A stretch of 24,000 bases of DNA from Candidatus Calditenuis fumarioli (GCA_030059665.1 JANVYR010000001.1:832087-856086), one strand, 5' to 3'. Counted from the stretch's first letter, positions 4,637-15,220 are shown. A program made the numbers and translations. Notes: generated from the letters alone by a model not told the origin.

Positions 4637-5752
4637 TCATCCGCGAAACCTGGTGGGGTCCAGGACCGGGGGTATCAGACCGGCCCTGATGGCGTGGTCC
4701 GCGAGCACGATGCCCACCATCGACTCGACCACGGGTACGGCCCTCGGGCCTATGACCGGGTCGTGCCTGCCGGTGACGACGACCTCCTCCTCTCTCATCG
4801 TGGAGAGGTTCAGGGTCCTCTGCGGCTTCGAGATCGATGCGGGAGGCTTGAAGGCCACCCTCACGAGGATCTCTCGTCCGGTGGAGAGGCCCCCGACGAT
4901 GCCTCCGGCGTTGTTCGTCCTCGGCAACACCTTTCCGTCGACCAGCGTAAGGGGGTCGTTGTTCTCGGAGCCCCTGCTGCCCACTGCCCGGAATCCCCTC
5001 CCGAACTCCACACCTTTGACCGCGGGGATTGCGAAGAGCGCCCTTGCGATGTCCGCATCGAGGGAGGAGAAGACGGGTTCGCCGAGGCCTACGGGAACGT
5101 TCACCGCGATGCACTCCACCAGGCTCCCTATGCTGTCGCCTGAGGCCCTCACCTGCTTGATCAGCTCGACCATGCGGGCCGCGGTCTCCTCATCGGGGCA
5201 CCTCACCTCGTTCGAGTAGCGCTTCTCCCTGATCTCGTCTACCGTGAGCTCGGGTGCCACAACTTCTCCCACCTGCTTCACGTACGCCATCACCTCGATC
5301 CCGAGCGTGACCCTGAGGAGCTTCAGCGCAACAGCACCTGCCATCACGAAGCCCGCGGTTATCCTCCCCGAGAACCTCCCTCCTCCCCGGTAGTCGTTGA
5401 AGCCTCCGTACCTCACCCTGGCGAAGTAGTCGGCGTGCCCCGGCCTCGGGACGTTCAGGAGCCTCTCGTAGCTCCTCGAGTCGACGTCCCTGTTCCAGAC
5501 GACCATCGCGATCGGAGCTCCTGTCGTGTGTCCCCTGAAGACGCCGCTGAGTATTTCCACCCTGTCCTCCTCCCTCCTCGGGGTTGCGATGGCCGACTGG
5601 CCGGGCCTCCTCAGGTCGAGGAGCGGTTGGACGTCCTCCTCCGACAGCGGAAGGCCGGCTGGGCACCCGTCGATGACCACCCCGACGCACCTCCCGTGGC
5701 TCTCGCCGAAGCTGACCACCACGAACCGCTCGCCGAGCACGTTACCCGGCAT
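4637..5752 (-). CDS. aroC: chorismate synthase
   Basis: The N-terminus GERFVVVSFGESHGRCVGVVIDGCPAGL, followed by LRRPGQS and SGVFRGHTTGAPI, is a canonical AroC signature. The ORF track extends to 5911. ATG 5752 gives a normal 371-aa protein and overlaps the aroA stop by 11 nt. Confidence 0.93.
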   Translation of the reverse strand: MPGNVLGERFVVVSFGESHGRCVGVVIDGCPAGLPLSEEDVQPLLDLRRPGQSAIATPRREEDRVEILSGVFRGHTTGAPIAMVVWNRDVDSRSYERLLNVPRPGHADYFARVRYGGFNDYRGGGRFSGRITAGFVMAGAVALKLLRVTLGIEVMAYVKQVGEVVAPELTVDEIREKRYSNEVRCPDEETAARMVELIKQVRASGDSIGSLVECIAVNVPVGLGEPVFSSLDADIARALFAIPAVKGVEFGRGFRAVGSRGSENNDPLTLVDGKVLPRTNNAGGIVGGLSTGREILVRVAFKPPASISKPQRTLNLSTMREEEVVVTGRHDPVIGPRAVPVVESMVGIVLADHAIRAGLIPPVLDPTRFRG

Positions 5753-7028
5753 CCCTGACCTCCACCTCGCAACCCACCGCCGAGAGGTCCCTGAGGAAGT
5801 TCGGGTAGGAGACGTCCACCGACTCGACGCCGAGCGTGGCCACCTTGCCCTGTGAGGCGAGCGAGAGGAGAGCGAAGGCCATGAAGAGCCTGTGGTCCCC
5901 CTCCGGGTCAAGAACGGCCTCCCTCAGCTCTGCACCTCTGACCACCAGACCGTCCCTTTTCTCCTCGACCGATGCTCCCGCCTTTGAGAGCTCCCTCGCC
6001 AGAACCGCGATCCTGTCGGTCTCCTTGTACCTCGCGTGACCGACGCCTGAGACGATCGTCTCGCCTTCGGCGAAGCACGCCAGCACTGCGACCACCGGAA
6101 GGAGGTCCGGAGCGTCCCGGAGGTCGACGTGGACTCCGTGGAGGTCGGACCCGAAGACCTCGACGTAGTTCTCACCCTCCCTGAACCTCGCTCCCATTTC
6201 GCGGAGGACCTCGAGGATCGCGGCGTCGGCCTGAGGCAGCGACCGGTCGAGGTTCCAGACCCTGACAGATCCCCCCATGAGCAGCGGCACGGCCATCAGG
6301 AACGCGGCCAGCCCGTAGTCGCCCGGCACGGCGAACTCCCTAGCCCTCAGACCTCCGCCCTCGACGAGGACCCTGCTGCCCTCGAGCGAGACGCGTCCTC
6401 CGAAGCGGCGGACCACCTCGCACGTGGCCTCGATGTAGGGCCTCGAGACGACCTCGCCCGTCAGGCTCACCTCCAGCGCCCCATCGGAGGCGGAGCCAGC
6501 CACGATCAGCCCGGAGACGAACTGGCTGCTCACGTCGCCCCTCATCGCGCACTTTCCCCTCAGGCCCCCTTCGCCCTTCACCACGACCGGAGCGCAGCCG
6601 TTGTTCCTCGTTGACCAGGCCTCCACGCCCAACTGCCCGAGCGCCTCGAGGAGCGGCCCCATCGGCCTCCTCCTCAGGCTACCGTCGCCGGTTAGGACCG
6701 TGTAACCGCCCTCGACCAGCGAGGCCACGGCGGTGGCGATCCTGAGCGTGGTCCCCGAGTTCATCGCGTCGATGACGTCCTCCGGTACCTGAGGCCTCTC
6801 CACGCCCTCCACGACCAGCAGTCCCTCCCTCTGGTCAACCTGAGCTCCGAAGGCCCTGACCGCGTTGATGGTGGCCACCGTGTCCCTCGAGATCAGGGGA
6901 GACCTGACGGTGGAGGTTCCGTCCGAGAGCGAGGCGACGAAGACGGCCCTGTGCGTGTAGCTCTTCGAGGGCGGTGCCGTCACGTCACCGAATACCTCCT
7001 CCCTCTGCCTGACCCTGACCAGCTTCAT
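5742..7028 (-). CDS. aroA: 3-phosphoshikimate 1-carboxyvinyltransferase (EPSP synthase)
   Basis: N-terminal motif GDVTAPPSKSYTHRA. The 428-aa length is typical. ATG 7028 forms an ATGA overlap with the aroE stop (7025-7028). The 119-codon upstream extension in the ORF track is R/G-rich and lies inside aroE. Confidence 0.92.
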   Translation of the reverse strand: MKLVRVRQREEVFGDVTAPPSKSYTHRAVFVASLSDGTSTVRSPLISRDTVATINAVRAFGAQVDQREGLLVVEGVERPQVPEDVIDAMNSGTTLRIATAVASLVEGGYTVLTGDGSLRRRPMGPLLEALGQLGVEAWSTRNNGCAPVVVKGEGGLRGKCAMRGDVSSQFVSGLIVAGSASDGALEVSLTGEVVSRPYIEATCEVVRRFGGRVSLEGSRVLVEGGGLRAREFAVPGDYGLAAFLMAVPLLMGGSVRVWNLDRSLPQADAAILEVLREMGARFREGENYVEVFGSDLHGVHVDLRDAPDLLPVVAVLACFAEGETIVSGVGHARYKETDRIAVLARELSKAGASVEEKRDGLVVRGAELREAVLDPEGDHRLFMAFALLSLASQGKVATLGVESVDVSYPNFLRDLSAVGCEVEVRDAG

Positions 7029-7867
7029 CCGCCCGACCACCGGACGCATGACCTCGCTATATGCTCCATCAGCCGGTGTCCCGGGTCGATCCCTGTCCAG
7101 AGCCTGAAGGAGTGGGCCGCCTGCCTCGCCAGCACCTCGATCCCGTCGACGACCTCGCATCCCGCCGCCCTCCCCAGCCTCGTCGCCGGCGGCTCGCCGG
7201 TCCTCGAGTAGACCAGGTCGACCAGGAAGGCGACCCCCCTGAGGTCCTCGACGTCGAGAGGGAGGTCCGCGTCGTGCGAGAGGCCCGCGGGTATCGCGTT
7301 CACCACCACCTCGGCTCCCCTCACCACGCGTCCCAGCTCCGACAGCGGCGCGAACCTCGCCGGAACACCGAACCTCTCCCCGCACGTCCTGGACAGCTCG
7401 AGGCCCCTCGACTCGGTCCTGTTGACGACCACCACTTCTCGGGCCCCTGTCCTTGCGAGCGCGTACGCAGCTGCCCTCGCAGCACCGCCAGCACCTATCA
7501 GAACGGCCCTCCGGAACCCCACCGCACCCCTCTCCCTCAGCGCCTCCTCTACGGCGACCCAGTCGGTGTTGTGGCCCTCCCAGCCGTCAGGCGTCCTGAC
7601 GAGGACGTTGACAGCACCGATCGCCTCGGCGTCCCGCGAGACCCTTACCGAGCACCGGAAGGCCTCCTCCTTGTGGGGGATCGTCACGTTAAGCCCGAGG
7701 AACCCGAGGTCGTGGAGGGACCTGAGGACGCTCCTGACAGCCTCTCGTTCTGAGACGTCGATGGCCACGTACCTGTGCGGCAGCCCCTTGATCAGACAGG
7801 TGACGGAGTGGATGACCGGCGAGAGGGAGTGCGATACGGGATGGCCTATCAGCCCGAGTAGCGCCAT
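7025..7867 (-). CDS. aroE: shikimate 5-dehydrogenase
   Basis: Motifs GLIGHPVSHSLSPVIHS, LNVTIPHKE, NTD and the NADP fold GAGGAARAAAYAL. ATG 7867 gives 280 aa and overlaps the aroD 3' end by 19 nt. Confidence 0.9.
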   Translation of the reverse strand: MALLGLIGHPVSHSLSPVIHSVTCLIKGLPHRYVAIDVSEREAVRSVLRSLHDLGFLGLNVTIPHKEEAFRCSVRVSRDAEAIGAVNVLVRTPDGWEGHNTDWVAVEEALRERGAVGFRRAVLIGAGGAARAAAYALARTGAREVVVVNRTESRGLELSRTCGERFGVPARFAPLSELGRVVRGAEVVVNAIPAGLSHDADLPLDVEDLRGVAFLVDLVYSRTGEPPATRLGRAAGCEVVDGIEVLARQAAHSFRLWTGIDPGHRLMEHIARSCVRWSGG

Positions 7868-8568
7868 GCTCCCAACAGCTCCGAGAGCGAGTGGGCGGCC
7901 CTCCTCGTCTCCTCGACCGTCATCTGTCCCGGAGCGACCTCCATCCCCTGAAGTGCGGCGTACGCGAAGGGAGCTCCGAGGACGAGGCTGAGGGGCCTCG
8001 TGAAGGCGTACTCCTTCCCGACGGAGAAGGCGATCAGGTTCCCCTTCGACCAAGGGAGGCTGTGGTACAGCGAGAGCGTGGCGATCGCTCCCACGAGCGA
8101 CGAGGGCCTGGTGACGACCTTGACCAGGTCGCCGTGCTCCCTCAGGGCATGGGCCAGCTCCGCGAGCTTCTCCGGGTCGGAGCCGTTGGGGCCGAGGTGC
8201 GCAGATGCGATGACCCTTGACCTTCCGAGCTCGGCCACGACCTGCCTGACCTGCTCGTGTCCGAGAGCGTGGGAGTCCACGTCGATCAGGTCCGATCTGG
8301 GACCGACCCTCCTGAGGACGTCAGCGGCCTCTTCCGGTCCCCCCGAGAACCTCCCTCCCTCCGCGGAGCTCCTGAGGGTTGCGACGGTCTCGATGCCGAG
8401 CGACCTCACCTCCCTGAGCGTGACATCGGCCTGATCGAGCCGATCGAGGTAGTCGATCCTCAGCTCCACCATGTCGGCCCCCTCTTCCTGCGCCCTCCTC
8501 GCCAGCTCCACCATCCGGCGGTGGCCCCCGGACGCAATCGAGACGCAGACCCTGTACCTCAAGCGCAT
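7849..8568 (-). CDS. aroD: 3-dehydroquinate dehydratase, type I
   Basis: Type I DHQase pattern: ELRIDYL, TLRSSAEGG and the Schiff-base Lys context DLVKVV. The ATG shares one nucleotide with the upstream aroB' stop (TGATG at 8566-8570). Confidence 0.88.
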   Translation of the reverse strand: MRLRYRVCVSIASGGHRRMVELARRAQEEGADMVELRIDYLDRLDQADVTLREVRSLGIETVATLRSSAEGGRFSGGPEEAADVLRRVGPRSDLIDVDSHALGHEQVRQVVAELGRSRVIASAHLGPNGSDPEKLAELAHALREHGDLVKVVTRPSSLVGAIATLSLYHSLPWSKGNLIAFSVGKEYAFTRPLSLVLGAPFAYAALQGMEVAPGQMTVEETRRAAHSLSELLGAWRYSG

Positions 8569-9551
8569 CAGACCTCGTCGATGAACTCCTCGACGGCGAT
8601 CCCCATGTGCCTCGCGGCTTTCTCGGACACCCTCACCAGGACCTCGTCGCCCTGGGAGAGGGAGGTGACGTCTAGGACCTCGCCCTTGGGGCTGACCAGC
8701 CTGATGGTCTCAGCCTTCTGGAGCGCGACCGACCCGGTGACGCCGTTCACCTCCGCGATCACGTTCACCAGCGGCCTCCGCTCGACCTTCACCCTCCCGA
8801 CCGAGACGATCCTGGTGGAGCCATCGACCGAGACCATCAAAACCCTAGACCCCGACCTGAGCTCGGAGAGGTAGTAGGTCCTCTCGGAGGGCCCGAGGAC
8901 GTAGCACTGGACGGATCCCGCGTTCACCCGGAAGGGCCTTGGTGGGGTCATCCGGCTGCCGATCGACTCGTTGTGGACGAGGAAGAGCATCCTCGCCATG
9001 TTCCCCACCAGCATTCCCTCGCCCGGCCTCAGCAGCGAGTTGGTGTCGACGCACGCCCTCTCGCCGGGACCGAGGCCCACGACGTCCTTTACCCTCGCGG
9101 CCCTGAGCTCCAACCTTCTGGGCGTCTCGACGAGCTCCCGGACGTAGTGAAGCTCCGAGAGGAGGTCCCTGGGGACCACGATCCCGTCAACTCCCCTCTC
9201 CAGGACGTGGATTAGGTCCTCGACCTCCTGGACGCTCCTCGCCCTCGCGAAGACCCTGACGCCCCTTCCCTGAAGGGCCGCTATCACGTTCTCGAGCGCT
9301 ATGATCCTCAGCTCCTCCGGCTCCACCAGGACCGCCTCCGTCCCCGGTCCGAGCGACCTGAGCATCGCCTCCACGTCCTTCTGGTCCCTGATCCTGAAGG
9401 TCTGCAATGAGCTGGGATTGTAGACGCGGATGCCGGCGTTCGCCGGTCCAACGTCGCCCAGCACCGCGTCGGCCCCGGCCTCGACGGCCCTCCTCAGGTC
9501 CTCCTCGCCGCCGACCTCTGCGATTAACTCCTTCCGCCTACCTCCGGACAT
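8568..9551 (-). CDS. aroB': 3-dehydroquinate synthase II (archaeal type)
   Basis: The family-typical block LLRPGEGMLVGN...FLVHNES...RPFRVNAGSVQCY matches archaeal DHQ synthase II. Its position between the ADH synthase gene and aroD fits. Overlaps the upstream gene by 14 nt. Confidence 0.85.
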   Translation of the reverse strand: MSGGRRKELIAEVGGEEDLRRAVEAGADAVLGDVGPANAGIRVYNPSSLQTFRIRDQKDVEAMLRSLGPGTEAVLVEPEELRIIALENVIAALQGRGVRVFARARSVQEVEDLIHVLERGVDGIVVPRDLLSELHYVRELVETPRRLELRAARVKDVVGLGPGERACVDTNSLLRPGEGMLVGNMARMLFLVHNESIGSRMTPPRPFRVNAGSVQCYVLGPSERTYYLSELRSGSRVLMVSVDGSTRIVSVGRVKVERRPLVNVIAEVNGVTGSVALQKAETIRLVSPKGEVLDVTSLSQGDEVLVRVSEKAARHMGIAVEEFIDEV

Positions 9552-10323
9552 GGATCAGGGCCTCCTCCGGCCTCTTCCCCTCGAGGACGATCGCCCGGAT
9601 CGCCCTGACTATCCCTCTCGGGTTCTCGTGCATGAAGACGTTCCTCCCTATCGTCACGCCCATGGCACCAGCCCTTACCGCACCCCACACCATCTCGAGG
9701 ACGTCCTCGTCGCGGTCGGACTTGGGGCCTCCTGCCATCACCACCGGCGCGGGGCAGGTCTCGACCACCTCCCTGAACGTCTCGGGTGATCCGGTGTAGG
9801 GGACCTTGACGACGTCGGCCCCGAGCTCGGCACCGACCCTCGCGACGTGGGCTATCACCTTCGGGTCGTTCGGGTCCTTCACGTTCTCCCCCCTCGGGTA
9901 CATCATGGCTATCAGCGGCACCCCGTACTCGTCGCACTCGTCTGCAACCATCCCCAGCTTCCTGAGCATGTGGGGCTCCGCTTTGCTGCCGATGTTGATG
10001 TGGACCGATACCGCATCTGCTCCCATCCTGAGCGCGTTCAGCACAGTCCCGTCCCTAACCTTCCAGTTCGGATCGGGACCGAGCGAGGTGCTGGCTGAGA
10101 GGTGTAGGATGAAGCCGACCCTCGGAGGTCTCGGCATGTGCTTCAGTATCCCCTTGTTCGTCAGGACAGCGGTCGCTCCTCCCTCCTCCACCAGCTCTAT
10201 CGTCCTGTAGATCCTGTCGAGCCCCTTCATCACGCCCGAGGAGACGGCGTGGTCCATCGGGATGCAGACCATCCTACCGTCCTGAGTTATCCGGGAAAGC
10301 CTCACCTGCTTGCCCCAGACCAT
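9538..10323 (-). CDS. aroA': 2-amino-3,7-dideoxy-D-threo-hept-6-ulosonate (ADH) synthase, class I aldolase family
   Basis: DeoC/FbaB-type class I aldolase fold with blocks IPMDH, PLIAMMYPRG, GAELGADVVKVPYTG (Schiff-base Lys), CPAPVVMAGGPK and GRNVFMH. The assignment as ADH synthase rather than FBP aldolase rests on operon context. Its ATG 10323 directly abuts the asd stop. Confidence 0.82.
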   Translation of the reverse strand: MVWGKQVRLSRITQDGRMVCIPMDHAVSSGVMKGLDRIYRTIELVEEGGATAVLTNKGILKHMPRPPRVGFILHLSASTSLGPDPNWKVRDGTVLNALRMGADAVSVHINIGSKAEPHMLRKLGMVADECDEYGVPLIAMMYPRGENVKDPNDPKVIAHVARVGAELGADVVKVPYTGSPETFREVVETCPAPVVMAGGPKSDRDEDVLEMVWGAVRAGAMGVTIGRNVFMHENPRGIVRAIRAIVLEGKRPEEALIHVRR

Positions 10324-11379
10324 CTATCCCAACCTCCCGGTCGCCTTGAGGAGCTCGGCCGTCAGGATCGCTATCCCCGCTGCCCCCCTCACTAGGTTGT
10401 TCGTCAGGCTCACGAACTTCACGGTCCGCTCCGACGAGCCCTTCCTGAGCCTGCCCACGTGGACTACCATCCCGGACCTGTCGTTCGATCCCGCGTCCAG
10501 CCTCGGCTGCGGCCTGTCCTCCTCACGCCTCAGCTCGATGGGCCTCGGTGGCGCCGTGGGAAGCTCCAGCTGCTGCGGCAGCCCCCTGAAGTCCTCGAGA
10601 GCCTCCGCCACCTCCTCGAGCTTCGCCTCCCGGGATAGCGTCACCGTCAGGGCCGCCAGGTGCCCCACCAGAGTGGGCACCCTCGTGCAGGTGGCGTCGA
10701 TCGGGACCTCAGCCGGCCTGAAACCTCCGTCCTCGAAGGACCCGAGTATCTTCCTCGGCTCGAGCTCCACCTTCTCCTCCTCCCCCGGGATGTAGGGGAT
10801 GACGTTCCCGAGGATCGCCATCGAAGGGACGCCGTTGTAGCCAGCGCCCGAGACGGCCTGCATCGTGACCACGTTGACGTGCCTCAGCCCGAACTCGTCG
10901 AGGAGCGGCTTCAGGGGCATGACGAAGGCCGTCGTGGTGCAGTTCGGGGTCGTCACGATGAACCCGTCCCACTTCCTCCGCCTCCTCTGTACCTCTATCG
11001 CGTCGAGATGCTCCGGGTTGATCTCGGGAACGATCAGCGGCACGTCCTCGTGGTACCTGTTCGCCGAGGCGTCGGAGACAACCGGGAACCCGGCCTCCGC
11101 GAATTTGTGCTCCAGCTCCCGGGCCGCCTTGGTGGGGAGGCAGCTGAAGACCAGGTCGGCGTCGACCTTCGCAGGGTCCGAGGGAAGGACCTCCAGGTCC
11201 CAGTACTTCCTAGGCACGTCGCCCTTCCCCGCATAGGCCTCGACCAGCTTCTTCCCGACGGTCGTGTTCCCCGTGACCGCGCTCACCTCGAACCACGGGT
11301 GGTCCGCGAGCATCTGCAGGTAGATCTGCCCGACCATTCCTGTGGCTCCCAGAACGCACACCCTCAACTTCCTTCCCAT
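10324..11379 (-). CDS. asd: aspartate-semialdehyde dehydrogenase (archaeal type)
   Basis: NAD(P) fold VCVLGATGMVGQ, active-site Cys context TTPNCTTT, QAVSGAGY, and His context VGHLAAL. ATG 11379 is preceded by GGAGGTG (11392-11386) with 6-nt spacing. The ORF-track extension to 11499 runs through non-coding structured sequence. Confidence 0.9.
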   Translation of the reverse strand: MGRKLRVCVLGATGMVGQIYLQMLADHPWFEVSAVTGNTTVGKKLVEAYAGKGDVPRKYWDLEVLPSDPAKVDADLVFSCLPTKAARELEHKFAEAGFPVVSDASANRYHEDVPLIVPEINPEHLDAIEVQRRRRKWDGFIVTTPNCTTTAFVMPLKPLLDEFGLRHVNVVTMQAVSGAGYNGVPSMAILGNVIPYIPGEEEKVELEPRKILGSFEDGGFRPAEVPIDATCTRVPTLVGHLAALTVTLSREAKLEEVAEALEDFRGLPQQLELPTAPPRPIELRREEDRPQPRLDAGSNDRSGMVVHVGRLRKGSSERTVKFVSLTNNLVRGAAGIAILTAELLKATGRLG

Positions 11380-11405
11380 ACGAGACACCTCCACAAACGA
11401 AGCCT

Positions 11406-11523
11406 GAGCGGAGGGGGCAAGGATGGAGGGAATTCCATTATCCCTCCCAGAAATAGAAGTAGGTATAGGCCGTGAAGGCGAACCCGAGCAGGTTAACACG
11501 GCCCATACCTACCCCCTCCGCTC
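11406..11523 (-). ncRNA. 118-nt structured 5' leader / candidate cis-regulatory RNA (three-way junction) upstream of asd
   Basis: Read on the minus strand there are three helices. P1 pairs 11523-11512 with 11417-11406 (12 perfect bp). P3 pairs 11511-11497 with 11474-11460 (15 bp including one G-U) and carries an apical AACC/GGUU mini-helix. P2 pairs 11447-11441 with 11431-11425 (7 bp). The single imperfect pair is G-U on the minus-strand transcript but A-C on the plus strand, which points to the minus strand. The element starts at the predicted +1 of the TATA box at 11552-11543. Confidence 0.5.
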
Positions 11524-11542
11524 GCACCTCGCGGCAAACCCC

Positions 11543-11552
11543 ATAATATAAA
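11543..11552 (-). promoter_or_regulatory. strong TATA box (TTTATATTAT) for the asd-aro operon leader
   Basis: This is the most A/T-rich decamer in the window. Its centre is about 26 nt upstream of G 11523, the first base of helix P1, which follows a pyrimidine (an initiator-like YR step). Confidence 0.5.
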
Positions 11553-11596
11553 CGTTCGAAGCAAGGGTTCGGAGAGCAGAGCGACGCGTCGAGCGA

Positions 11597-12133
11597 TCAC
11601 GAGATCCGGCCGCCATCGCCCTGCGCCAGCTTCATGCGCCTCTCCAGGACCTTCCTCCTGGGAGCGTGGTCCCTCTTCCAGACCATTACCGTCCTCCTGA
11701 ACTCGACGACCGGCACGTTGTCCTGGTTGTATCCGACGGTCCTGACCTTGACGATCCCCATTCCGGGCCTTGATCGGGACTCGCGCTTCTCGAGGACCTC
11801 GCTCTGGGCGTACAGCGTGTCGCCGGCGTAGACGGGGTGGAGGAACCTCACCTCCTCGAACCCCAGGTTGATGGCGTTCTGGCTCACGTCCATCACGCTC
11901 AGCCCCAGCACAACGGCCAGCGTAAGGGCACTGTTGACCAGCGGTCTGCCCCACTCAGTCTCTGCGCAGTAATCGGCGTTGACGTGGATCTCGTTCGGGT
12001 TCATCGTGAGCAGCGTGAACCAGACATTGTCTGCCTCGGTCACCGTCCTCCCGTAGGGATGAACGTAGACGTCTCCCAGCTCGAAGTCCTCGAAGTACCT
12101 GCCCTCCCAGCCCCTGAAGACCCTCCCCTTCAC
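11597..12133 (-). CDS. MaoC-family (hotdog fold) dehydratase / enoyl-CoA hydratase-like
   Basis: 178 aa with a MaoC-like N-terminal block (FEDFELGDVY...GRTVTEADNVWFTLLTMNPNEIHVN) and a hotdog-fold length. GTG start at 12133, with a TATA-like ATTTGT (12163-12158, minus) centred about 27 nt upstream. Confidence 0.82.
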   Translation of the reverse strand: MKGRVFRGWEGRYFEDFELGDVYVHPYGRTVTEADNVWFTLLTMNPNEIHVNADYCAETEWGRPLVNSALTLAVVLGLSVMDVSQNAINLGFEEVRFLHPVYAGDTLYAQSEVLEKRESRSRPGMGIVKVRTVGYNQDNVPVVEFRRTVMVWKRDHAPRRKVLERRMKLAQGDGGRIS

Positions 12134-12174: not shown

Positions 12175-12293
12175 TGCGGGGGGTGGGATTCGAACCCACG
12201 AACCCTTCCGCCCGGGTCTGGCCTGCGGGACCGGGTATCCCTTCAAGGGGGACCTTAAGCCCGGCGCCTTTGTCCTGGCTTGGCTACCCCCGC
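12175..12293 (-). tRNA. tRNA-Leu (anticodon UAA), intron-containing, 119 nt, CCA not encoded
   Basis: Acceptor stem GCGGGGG/CCCCCGC. Class II D-arm GCCAAGCCAGGACAAAGGC. Anticodon stem CCGGG/CCCGG with loop CUUAAG. T-arm GTGGG-TTCGAAT-CCCAC and discriminator A. A 17-nt intron follows position 37 (about 12253-12237). The variable region is 31 nt (12230-12200), about 17 nt longer than a normal Leu variable arm. Confidence 0.85.
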
Positions 12294-13393: not shown

Positions 13394-15100
13394 TCAGCCA
13401 GACGGCCCAGGCGAGGTAACCGCGCCCTTGCTCGCGGACTGGACGAGCGCCGCGTACTTCGCGAGCAGCCCTGTTCTGGCCCTCGGCGGCCTCGGCTTCC
13501 ACCCCTTCATCCTCCTCTCCAGCTCGGCCCGGTCCACGAGCAGCTCGATCCTCCCCTCCCTCGCATCGATGAGCACCCTGTCCCCCTCCTCCACCACCGC
13601 TATGGGCCCTCCGGCCGCGGCCTCGGGGGCCACGTGTCCCACCATCATCCCGCGGGTGGCACCGCTGAAGCGACCGTCCGTCACCATCGCGACCGAGTCT
13701 CCGAGTCCAGCTCCGACGATGGCCGCCGTCACCCTGAGCATCTCCGGCATCCCAGGCGCTCCCTTCGGCCCGACGTACCTGATCACGACCACGTCGCCCG
13801 GTTGGATCTCGTTGCGCCGGATCGCCTCGAACGCCGAGTCCTCGTCGTCGAAGGGCCTCGCCCTCCCCTCGAACCGCTCGATTCCCGTGGCGGCGACCTT
13901 CAGCACGGCTCCCTCCGGTGCGAGGCTCCCCCAGAGTATCCTGATCCCTCCGGTGGGCTTGATGGGGTTCGCGGGGTCCTTCACCACGTGGTCGTGCGGT
14001 ATGTCGACGAACCTGTACTCCCTCAGGCTCTCCGCCAGGGTCTTCCCCGTGACCGTGAGCGCCTCGCCCCTCAGGTAGCCGCGCTCGAGGAGCTTCCTCA
14101 GCACCAGCGGCACCCCTCCCACAGCGTCGAGGTCTGCCATCACGTACTGCCCTGCGGGTCTCATGCTCACTATGTAGGGGACCTTCCTGGAGATCTCGTC
14201 GATGTCGCGGAGCGTGAAGCTGACGCCGGCCTCGTGGGCTATCGCCAGCAGGTGGAGGATGCCGTTGGTGGAGCCACCCATCGCCATCAGCAGCACCGTC
14301 GCGTTGTAGAGGGCGTCGTAGGTCACGACGTCCCTCGCCTTGATGCCCGTCTCTATCAGGTGGCCCAGCGCCTTCCCCGAGAGGTAGCAGTACATCGCCC
14401 TCCTCGAGGAGGTCGCCACAGGAGTCGACGATCCCAGAAGCGCGATGCCCAACGCCTCCGAGAGGGAGGCCATCGTGTTAGCGGTGAAGAGGCCCGCGCA
14501 TGTCCCGACCGTCGGGTGAGCGTGCCTCTCTATCTCCATCAGCTCCTCCTCGGAGATCTTGCCGCTGACGTAGGCGCCGATCGACTCGTAGACGTCCTCT
14601 ATCGTGAGCTTCCTGTCGCCCAGGTATCCCGGCTCCGCGGAGCCCCCATAGACGTAGACTGAAGGCAGGTTGAGCCTGACCATCGCCATCATGATTCCTG
14701 GCTGAGTCTTGTCGCAACCGCCGATCCCCACGAGGCCGTCGAACGCGTGGGCCTGGACCTGGGCCTCTATCGTGTCAGCGATCAGGTCCCTGCTGACCAG
14801 GCTGTACCTCATCCCTTCGGTGCCCATGCTGATGTTGTCGTTCACCACCAGCGTCGGCACCGCGAGACCCGTGACGCCAGCGGCCTCCATCCCGGCCTTG
14901 ACGTGTCCTACCAGACCGAGCGTGTGGAAGTTGCACGGCCCGGCCTCGCTCCAGGAGACGACCACGCAGCCGAGCGGCCTGTCGATCGCCGCGTCGGAGA
15001 GACCGATGGCCCTGAGGAAGGCCCGGTGGCTCGCGTTGAGTACGCCGTGGTACCTCGCCCTGCTCGGGAGGCCCTCCTTCAGCTCCCTGACCTCCGACAT
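13394..15100 (-). CDS. ilvD: dihydroxy-acid dehydratase
   Basis: IlvD/Edd blocks [24 protein letters not shown] and [14 protein letters not shown] 15100 (GTG 15103 is the ORF-track start) lies 26-27 nt downstream of the TATA centre at 15124-15129. Its stop is 2 nt from the leuB stop. Confidence 0.93.
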
Positions 15101-15123
15101 CACCGCCTGAGGCTCCTACCCCC

Positions 15124-15129
15124 ATATAA
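15124..15129 (-). promoter_or_regulatory. TATA box (CTTATATG on minus strand) for ilvD
   Basis: The A/T core is centred about 26.5 nt upstream of ATG 15100. It is flanked by the inverted repeat CCTGAGGC (15106-15113) / GCCTCAGG (15141-15148). Confidence 0.45.
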
Positions 15130-15220
15130 GCAGAAGTCAGGCCTCAGGGTCCGGAGGCGGACGGCCCCACCCCACATGTGCGGATCACGTTTTTCACGAG
15201 GAAGTGGGGGAGCAGACCGG

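Follow-up and report, generated by a model that had tools for sequence, protein, structure and literature searches.

The asd–aro locus

The window analysed here, a stretch of 24,000 nucleotides (nt) from Candidatus Calditenuis fumarioli, carries on its minus strand an operon leading from aspartate semialdehyde to chorismate and, in front of its first gene asd, a folded leader RNA of 118 nt (11523–11406) that encloses a short open reading frame (ORF) rich in aromatic codons; this leader is the subject of the present analysis. All coordinates are those of the window, and the features of leader and operon are given in minus-strand orientation. The operon (4637–11379) comprises asd (10324–11379, with the start ATG at 11379), aroA′, aroB′, aroD and aroE, followed by the genes of EPSP synthase and chorismate synthase, an order also found in relatives. 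Pfam identifies the products downstream of Asd as a DeoC-family aldolase/ADH synthase (AroA′), DHQ synthase II (AroB′), DHQ dehydratase, shikimate dehydrogenase, EPSP synthase and chorismate synthase, and the operon thus represents a complete route of the 6-deoxy-5-ketofructose 1-phosphate (DKFP) type from aspartate semialdehyde to chorismate. The Asd protein of the window is 89% identical to that of two Candidatus Calditenuis/Calditenuaceae assemblies and 66% identical to that of another ‘Nitrososphaerota’ metagenome-assembled genome, and the window sequence is also present on a JGI metagenome contig (L118; L numbers are used below for individual loci where they need to be told apart).

Between asd and the neighbouring MaoC-like gene lies a gap of 217 nt. 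It contains a TATA box, TTTATATT(AT), at 11552–11543 (TTTATATT itself at 11552–11545), about 25 nt ahead of the first base of the helix termed P1, and a TATA-like box likewise stands about 21–26 nt 5′ of the P1 start in the relatives inspected, which include L001, L003, L127, L131, L133 and L135. From this spacing the 5′ end of the transcript is predicted at about 11523, that is, at the first base of P1. At the other end, a 13-nt spacer separates P1 from the Shine-Dalgarno (SD) sequence of asd, GGAGGUG (DNA GGAGGTG, 11392–11386). An earlier reading of the window, made from the sequence only, had located the TATA box, the helices P1, P3 and P2, the SD sequence, the asd ATG and the 217-nt gap at positions that all agree with the sequence. 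It had also pointed to a weaker alternative promoter, TTCTATTT at 11458–11451, which could not be upheld: these bases are Phe and Tyr codons, and since the relatives have TTCTAC, TTTTAC or TTCTTT at this position, all of them poor TATA boxes, an internal promoter is rejected.

A folded RNA of three helices

The element is built from three helices. The 5′ strand of P1, GAGCGGAGGGGG (11523–11512), forms 12 perfect pairs with an anti-SD-like 3′ strand, CCCCCTCCGCTC / CCCCCUCCGCUC (11417–11406), so that the predicted transcript 5′ end, with its SD-like GGAGGGGG, becomes part of a duplex whose other strand stands 13 nt ahead of the asd SD. Within P1, the P3 strands at 11511–11497 and 11474–11460 pair with each other, including one G-U pair (11504/11467), and P3 is capped by a 5-bp apical hairpin, AACCU-GCUC-GGGUU. 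P2 is a hairpin in which GGAGGGA (11447–11441) pairs with UCCCUCC (11431–11425).

The minimum free energy (MFE) fold of 11530–11400 contains all three helices at −73 kcal/mol (z = −6.39), a value equalled by none of 200 dinucleotide shuffles, and in this respect the 118-nt structure proposed by the sequence-only reading stands. When the 118-nt core was refolded at 37, 60, 75 and 85 °C the structure stayed the same (z between −7.6 and −9.1), with energies of −30.5 kcal/mol at 75 °C and −20.5 kcal/mol at 85 °C (z about −8), and the growth temperatures of Calditenuis match the range of 75 and 85 °C (PMC12979851). The plus strand is nearly as stable (z = −6.17), and energy alone can therefore not assign the strand. 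The element is nevertheless assigned to the strand of asd, as had been suggested before, because of conserved G-U and U-G pairs, which would be A-C on the opposite strand, and because of the co-oriented ORF. Pair 11504/11467 is G-U in eight of 12 aligned sequences and A-U in the other four, and U-G pairs are present in P1 as well.

The element matches no known RNA family, which bears out the earlier impression. A search of the window with Rfam 15 gave no match at the gathering score except an intron-containing tRNA elsewhere, and at E ≤ 10 only chance miRNA-like matches appeared; the leaders of eight relatives gave no Rfam match, and ARAGORN found nothing on the element. Known RNA genes (a 5S rRNA-like three-way junction of about 120 nt, tRNA, C/D or H/ACA small RNA, known riboswitches) were rejected on these Rfam and ARAGORN negatives. 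For the 5S-like candidate it may be added that species with 89% identity in their Asd proteins have wholly different P3 apices, a divergence that would be unexpected for a 5S loop.

A leader ORF rich in aromatic codons

The sequence-only reading took the element for a purely non-coding, riboswitch-like RNA, a view that does not hold, since a conserved, SD-preceded ORF of 22 codons lies within it (11506–11438; ATG at 11506–11504, TAA at 11440–11438) and encodes MGRVNLLGFAFTAYTYFYFWEG. The SD sequence of this upstream ORF (uORF), GGAGG (11519–11515), is part of the P1 5′ strand and stands 8 nt before the ATG, which is itself inside the P3 5′ strand; the P3 3′ strand corresponds to codons T12-A13-Y14-T15-Y16, and the stop codon UAA forms the first three bases of the P2 loop. 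The candidate sensor codons (11447–11482) are F9 (11482–11480), F11, T12, Y14, T15, Y16, F17, Y18, F19 and W20 (11449–11447), and what appears in the fold as a single-stranded linker, CTTCTATTTCTGG / CUUCUAUUUCUGG, reads UUC UAU UUC UGG, or Phe-Tyr-Phe-Trp.

Eight of the 22 residues of the window peptide are Phe, Tyr or Trp (36%, compared with 5.8% in 17 window proteins), and the binomial probability of at least eight aromatic residues in 22 is about 2e-5 at a background of 6.0%. Over all leader peptides, Phe, Tyr and Trp make up 27.8% and Thr 10.9% of residues, the corresponding values for the 17 window proteins being 5.8% and 4.3%. Among 7,545 background small ORFs, five aromatic residues in a stretch of eight are reached by 0.5% and six in eight by 0.04%.

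A homologous ORF is present in frame in all 13 distinct leaders recovered (see below), despite nucleotide divergence of 50–90%, and no other frame is open in every one. All relatives keep the core [F/W]-T-x-Y-x-Y-F-Y-F, and their peptides include MGRATSVTFGFTAYTYFYFWEG, MGSKNFKLIGFATYAYFYAWIS (with a GTG start), MVLSSVNAFWFTTYPYFYFGN, MVQNSLVMKRFTTYPYFYFGQRR and MSRGRGIGRKGIQLFGWTATYAYFFGPRE as well as MNRGRGIGRKQVQYSEWFTTYAYFFGL, MSRGRGVGRSDLTLQTATTTYAFYFGPYA, MGGGRTIGRSFAPIYHLWATTYAYYFKG and MGADLRYTLGFTSDGRAYFYTDAP. Differences within the aromatic run are either synonymous (TTC/TTT, TAT/TAC) or exchange Phe for Tyr and vice versa, and are not free U-to-C or C-to-U changes; judged from the sequences, this codon-wise variation differs from what a pyrimidine tract constrained at the RNA level only would display. 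The variable apex of P3 coincides with the variable N-terminal half of the peptide, and because the length of the apex is kept, the frame is kept too.

Seven lineages start the uORF with ATG or GTG, and where ATG has become GTG, P3 pairing is kept by a change from TAT to TAC on the opposite side of the helix. Four others have ATA or GTA at the former start codon together with an ATG in the same frame at the predicted transcription start, so that their uORF would be leaderless. The spacing along the leaders is conserved: the aromatic codons fall mostly at nt 32–86 (approximately), the dense run ends at nt 73–86 and the stop codon lies at nt 81–90; the P1 3′ strand follows 16–26 nt past the stop, and the next start codon 18–33 nt past P1 (53–57 nt in L003-type leaders). 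Ten of the leader peptides were looked up in a collection of 15 billion proteins and none was found among its called genes, in which such short ORFs are seldom represented.

Several further small ORFs were observed in this region. An AUG overlaps the uORF stop in the window (11438–11436, UAAUG) and in L129 and L136 (AUGA), or lies 2 nt past the stop in L127, and it occupies the same alignment column in five sequences with different flanks. The second ORF opened by it extends across the 3′ strands of both P2 and P1 and across the ribosome-binding site of asd, with its stop 1–15 nt past the asd start; its peptide shows no conservation, and C-rich sequence may be all that keeps the frame open, although the AUG could provide a termination-reinitiation link in the mechanism discussed below. 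In the clade of L003 (2942–3001), L109 and L112, the 53–57 nt between element and asd hold an extra small ORF whose SD (GAGGUG) abuts the P1 3′ end, whose AUG lies 12 nt past P1 and which overlaps the asd start (AUGA in L003). The asd frame itself, which is shifted by +1 from that of the uORF, contains no stop in the 40 codons ahead of its ATG, back as far as a GTG at 11499 (11380–11499); as this frame relation is not conserved, the upstream open frame is taken as a by-product of GC-rich sequence. A starvation-induced +1 frameshift into the asd frame was likewise rejected, the frame relation in relatives being 0, +1 or +2.

Conservation and covariation in Caldarchaeales

Homologous loci were collected from a genome collection, from a scan of metagenomes with a DNA pattern and from look-ups of Asd homologues at 56–73% identity. 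The metagenome scan gave 46 matches, 12 of which were true, and wherever the contig of a true match reached beyond the element, asd came next. Altogether 13 distinct leaders of 109–123 nt share the same architecture (116–123 nt in the 12 that the model described below aligns), all of them from Caldarchaeales (Aigarchaeota). On the 3′ side of the element the order asd-aroA′-aroB′-aroD-aroE is constant; the 5′ neighbour varies between a MaoC-like gene, an unknown gene and a divergent GHMP kinase. Searches with a covariance model, for which five sequences were used, found exactly one copy per locus, always 5′ of the asd operon, and no copies elsewhere in the approximately 338 kb searched, which included other archaeal asd loci.

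Covariation was counted on an alignment of 12 sequences fitted to this model, with two kinds of control, namely 3′ partner strands slid by 1–3 columns and 500 shuffles. In this alignment 94% of the cells in helix positions are paired, as opposed to 44–53% in the slid controls, and 12 of 27 pairs (39 cells) have changed on both sides, as opposed to 0–3 pairs in the slid controls, while none of the 500 shuffles reaches the observed values. P1 is paired in 99% of its cells and has changed on both sides in six of its 12 pairs; for P3 this is the case in six of 15 pairs. Among the relatives, the P1 strands GAGCGGAGGGGG/CCCCCUCCGCUC are exchanged for CAAGAGCAGGGGG/CCCCCUGCUCUUG and for GAACAGGGGG.../...CCCCCUGUUC. 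RNAalifold, run on a MAFFT alignment that had not been fitted to the model, independently recovered P3, with compensatory changes in eight of 17 pairs. P2 forms a hairpin around the uORF stop in the relatives, with varying sequence and strength (CCCGAG/CUCGGG in L131, UCUGAG/CUCGGA in L133), and is weak in L003, L127 and L129. The earlier proposal that the asd–aro operon is headed by a conserved, structured, cis-acting leader is thereby substantiated.

An unusual case was seen on a 1.1-kb metagenome contig (L122, 1–110; Ga0187840_10012941), on which the element begins only at the P3 5′ strand. In place of the P1 5′ strand stands unrelated sequence that has a TATA box of its own and a start reading ATGGGCAAGTT..., and the contig represents either a chimera of the assembly or a naturally occurring variant without P1.

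Unrelated leaders upstream of aspartate kinase

In more distant Caldarchaeales, the gene for aspartate kinase (AK) precedes asd, and the leaders, which are unrelated in sequence to those described above, again contain Tyr-rich uORFs. The peptides read ...NGYSYYRYS... in L137, ...NSWYFPYYRYS... in L140 and MKAAHFYRFSGYTYYRI in L142, with the Tyr-rich cores GYSYYRYS, SWYFPYYRYS and FYRFSGYTYYRI, respectively, and the leader of L138 has MWLFFSMALNRHDAVS. In L137, L140 and L142 the uORF lies inside a closing helix of 9–10 bp that begins about 20–25 nt past a TATA box, and in the MFE folds of L140 and L142 the 3′ strand of this helix has the AK SD as its partner. These AK-asd leaders may point to a small regulon-like family in Caldarchaeales whose members are related but distinct in sequence.

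The three leaders of L137, L140 and L142 lie upstream of the aspartate kinase gene at about 1660–1790. L137 and L140 additionally share a conserved, covarying hairpin (CCAUC/GAUGG vs GCCGAU/AUCGGC) followed by U3–U4 between the uORF and the AK SD. In L142, no aro genes follow the AK-asd operon and the aromatic leader is still present.

The aromatic uORF is absent from L141 (Caldarchaeum sp.), and none that convinced was detected within 260 nt upstream of asd at 71 other loci from other archaea and bacteria, where the covariance model was negative as well. Generality of the leader outside Caldarchaeales was rejected on these 71 loci.

Proposed ribosome-dependent attenuation of the asd–aro operon

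The combination of a covarying structure with a conserved aromatic uORF inside it points, as far as sequence comparison can tell, to a new, conserved cis-regulatory leader that is a coding leader-peptide element rather than a riboswitch-like non-coding RNA. The reading favoured here is that it acts as a ribosome-dependent leader-peptide attenuator of the asd-to-chorismate operon in this Calditenuis-like archaeon of the Caldarchaeales, with a probability of roughly 0.68. All 13 leaders carry a short 5′ ORF with start signals, either an SD sequence or a leaderless ATG, the codons of the end products are enriched in it, and the operon, which runs from asd through chorismate synthase, has the content that such a sensor would be expected to control. 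The sensor codons form the 3′ strand of a covarying helix, P3. Further support comes from the constant linkage of the element to the operon in the face of changing 5′ neighbours and, independently, from the AK-asd leaders, which place Tyr-rich uORFs within a closing helix of their own.

How the helices could be linked to expression of asd is indicated by the alternative partner of the P1 3′ strand. Its segment CCUCCGC (11414–11408) can pair with GUGGAGG (11394–11388) at the asd SD, the equivalent pairing in L129 being UCCGCCUC:GAGGUGGA. If the P1 5′ strand is made unavailable, the P1 3′ strand pairs with the SD in most lineages, and masking the P1 5′ strand lowers the predicted accessibility of the SD in 15 of 17 lineages at 37 °C and in 17 of 17 at 70 °C. 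The partner exchange between SD-like and anti-SD-like strands that the sequence-only reading had considered conceivable is thus seen, if weakly, in predicted folds. The possibility that the aromatic tract itself pairs with the asd SD was rejected, as its duplex energy is not better than that of shuffled tracts in any of 15 leaders.

On this basis the following course of events may be envisaged. Transcription would begin at the first base of P1, and a ribosome would load on the uORF, the SD and AUG of which belong to the 5′ strands of P1 and P3, respectively, at a time when neither 3′ strand exists. It would then read a peptide whose second half is nearly all Phe, Tyr and Trp with Thr interspersed, and the position of this pioneer ribosome would set which helices form. 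With charged aromatic tRNAs scarce, it would stall at codons 14–20 and so occupy the P3 3′ strand together with the tract that follows; with charged aromatic tRNAs plentiful, it would reach the stop codon inside P2. P1 would act as an anti-sequestor, since its C-rich 3′ strand mimics an anti-SD and would otherwise pair with the asd SD. A stalled ribosome would keep P3 open and leave a linker of about 30 nt or more, so that the P1 5′ strand could capture the emerging 3′ strand; the asd SD would then be free, asd would be translated co-transcriptionally and the operon would escape archaeal polarity. With the ribosome at the stop codon and P3 re-formed behind it, the linker of window-type leaders would shrink to about 14 nt and closure of P1 would be blocked while the SD is being made, and in AK-asd-type leaders the ribosome would sit on or reach the P1 3′ strand directly. 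In both cases P1 would not close, its 3′ strand would pair with the SD and expression would be reduced. Polarity exists in archaea and has been attributed to FttA (PMC12548453), and an untranslated asd might be exposed to it. Translation of the uORF, stalling and the sign of the response would all be parts of this scheme, and control might be exerted at the level of translation or of FttA-type termination.

Several results weigh against this scheme and it must be taken with corresponding caution. The duplex of P1 3′ strand and SD has little stability at 75 °C (−3 to −5 kcal/mol), is absent in L003 and L109 and, when compared with shuffled strands, is significant only in L129 and L142 and marginally in the window (75 °C); the switch between P1 and this pairing is therefore weak in silico and not uniformly significant. 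When ribosomes were masked onto window-type leaders at the aromatic codons or at the stop, the equilibrium accessibility of the asd SD was identical and P1 formed in both cases, and only masking of the P1 5′ strand lowered it. The steric and kinetic argument for the sign of the response is one of reasoning, and several simple physical readings give the opposite sign, with stalling lowering expression: with the P2 5′ strand covered by the stalled ribosome, a second CCCUCC strand is set free, and the ribosome has to be accommodated within P1. An intrinsic terminator between the leader ORF and the first gene, a hallmark of classical attenuators, is not found either: a scan of 11200–11700 for bacterial-type terminators gave none, leading to the rejection of such a terminator after the leader, and by inspection the window leader has no T5 tract and no run longer than T3. 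Finally, the alignment from which covariation was counted is itself fitted to the model.

Alternative explanations

The best surviving alternative, although an unlikely one, is a metabolite- or protein-binding leader, that is, a riboswitch-like three-way junction in which the ORF would be incidental. The compact junction with strong covariation of P1 and P3, a variable apex and conserved junction nucleotides would be in keeping with this, and the lack of a matching Rfam family leaves room for a new aptamer class. However, unpaired conserved nucleotides that vary independently of the frame, as an aptamer would be expected to have, are not what is observed, since the supposed junction nucleotides vary as codons (TTC/TTT, TAT/TAC, Phe for Tyr) and not by free exchange of U and C. 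In addition, the frame, the start (including its in-frame replacement) and the stop inside P2 are kept in 13 of 13 leaders, and the sequence-unrelated AK-asd leaders share only the aromatic uORF and the closing helix with the window type, not the junction.

Less probable again is a constitutive 5′ structure that stabilizes the mRNA of a thermophile by hiding its 5′ end and exerts no conditional control. It would make sense of the location of the 5′ end within a GC helix of 12 bp that withstands 75–85 °C and of an asd SD that is predicted to be free in the full fold, but it leaves the aromatic uORF, its SD and the location of its stop in P2 unexplained, and no such leader is present at ilvD, the one other first gene inspected, about ten others having been called leaderless in the sequence-only reading.

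Slightly less likely still is a micro-protein gene, whose functional aromatic peptide of 22–29 amino acids would be co-transcribed with the operon without any sensing role. While the ORF is conserved, has translation signals and keeps a C-terminal motif at the amino-acid level, its N-terminal half is unconserved, its length and the residues past the aromatic run vary, and only the aromatic and Thr content is maintained, with unrelated peptides (MWLFFS..., ...GYTYYRI) occupying the same place. Moreover, conserved helices tie up the start and sensor codons, as is the case in attenuators, and the absence of ten of these peptides from the called genes of the protein collection also speaks against it, with the reservation that short ORFs are seldom called.

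An element acting at the DNA level, either a mobile inverted repeat or a protein-binding palindrome, is highly improbable: both strands fold about equally well, but there is one copy per locus and none elsewhere in the approximately 338 kb, the conserved G-U and U-G pairs are A-C mismatches on the other strand and the place of the element with respect to the TATA box and asd is constant; a mobile or repeated element was rejected because none of the repeat families of the window includes the leader and the model matches once per locus.

Relation to known attenuators

Ribosome-mediated attenuation is a textbook bacterial mechanism that depends on coupled transcription and translation, and Archaea couple the two processes as well. 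The present leader resembles trpL, pheL/pheA, hisL and thrL of E. coli in that a short ORF lies in the 5′ leader of an amino-acid operon, in that the codons of the end products are clustered with few codons between the run and the stop, and in that the sensor codons reside within conserved RNA helices. As thrL is a multivalent leader, the mixture of Thr and aromatic codons recalls such leaders. It differs from the bacterial attenuators in its archaeal host and in the lack of a hairpin-plus-U-run terminator after it. Furthermore, its sensor codons pair with the start region of the uORF itself, upstream in P3, instead of with a downstream segment, P1 encloses the whole uORF, the predicted transcript start coincides with the start of P1, and in some lineages the uORF would be leaderless.

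The attenuator proposed here appears to resemble most closely the translational attenuation by leaderless polycysteine small ORFs of mycobacteria (bioRxiv 10.1101/834739). With these and with the ermC/cat leaders it shares an amino-acid-specific uORF, leaderless in four of the present lineages, a very stable leader fold, a proposed control at SD accessibility, polarity on downstream genes and independence from an intrinsic terminator. The mycobacterial leaders have a tract of sensor codons that base-pairs directly with the SD downstream of it (bioRxiv 10.1101/834739), whereas here tract:SD duplexes are no better than composition-matched shuffles and the candidate sequestor is the P1 3′ strand. 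The archaeal riboswitch candidates for fluoride (crcB), preQ1 and TPP are likewise structured 5′ leaders of archaeal mRNAs; unlike them, the present element matches no Rfam family and contains a conserved ORF.

To our knowledge, the known regulators of amino-acid metabolism in Archaea are proteins. A transcriptome paper from 2014 described attenuators as lacking any in-vivo support in Archaea (PMC4247193), and full-text literature searches turned up no example of leader-peptide or ribosome-mediated attenuation in an archaeon, with incomplete coverage that makes an earlier description possible. With a little less assurance than the attenuator reading itself, the leader would probably be the first leader-peptide attenuator in Archaea: a Phe/Tyr/Trp (possibly also Thr) uORF that would report the supply of charged tRNAs through the position of the pioneer ribosome and control a DKFP-pathway chorismate operon without a bacterial-type terminator, by means of a closing helix of SD-mimic and anti-SD strands and, probably, of archaeal coupling and polarity. 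If this is true, it becomes testable whether archaeal ribosomes serve as amino-acid sensors, how such a switch works without hairpin-dependent termination and whether FttA-type polarity serves regulation. It would also provide a search image for other archaeal operons, namely a long 5′ leader among mostly leaderless first genes, with a cognate-rich uORF and a closing helix at the transcription start. Experiments are feasible, since a cultivated Calditenuis exists (PMC12979851), and a study of Aigarchaeota based on metatranscriptomes is available as well (PMC4681859).

Other features of the window

Two neighbouring features were observed in passing. The gene ilvD (13394–15103) has a TATA-like box, CTTATATGG, about 25–30 nt before its start (region 15104–15140, minus strand) and neither a leader nor a uORF, suggesting that it is regulated differently from the aro operon. 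The tRNA at 12175–12293 (minus strand) was detected by Rfam (46.7 bits) and missed by ARAGORN; its span of 119 nt indicates an intron inside the tRNA, and by eye it looks like a tRNA-Leu(UAA) with a long variable arm.

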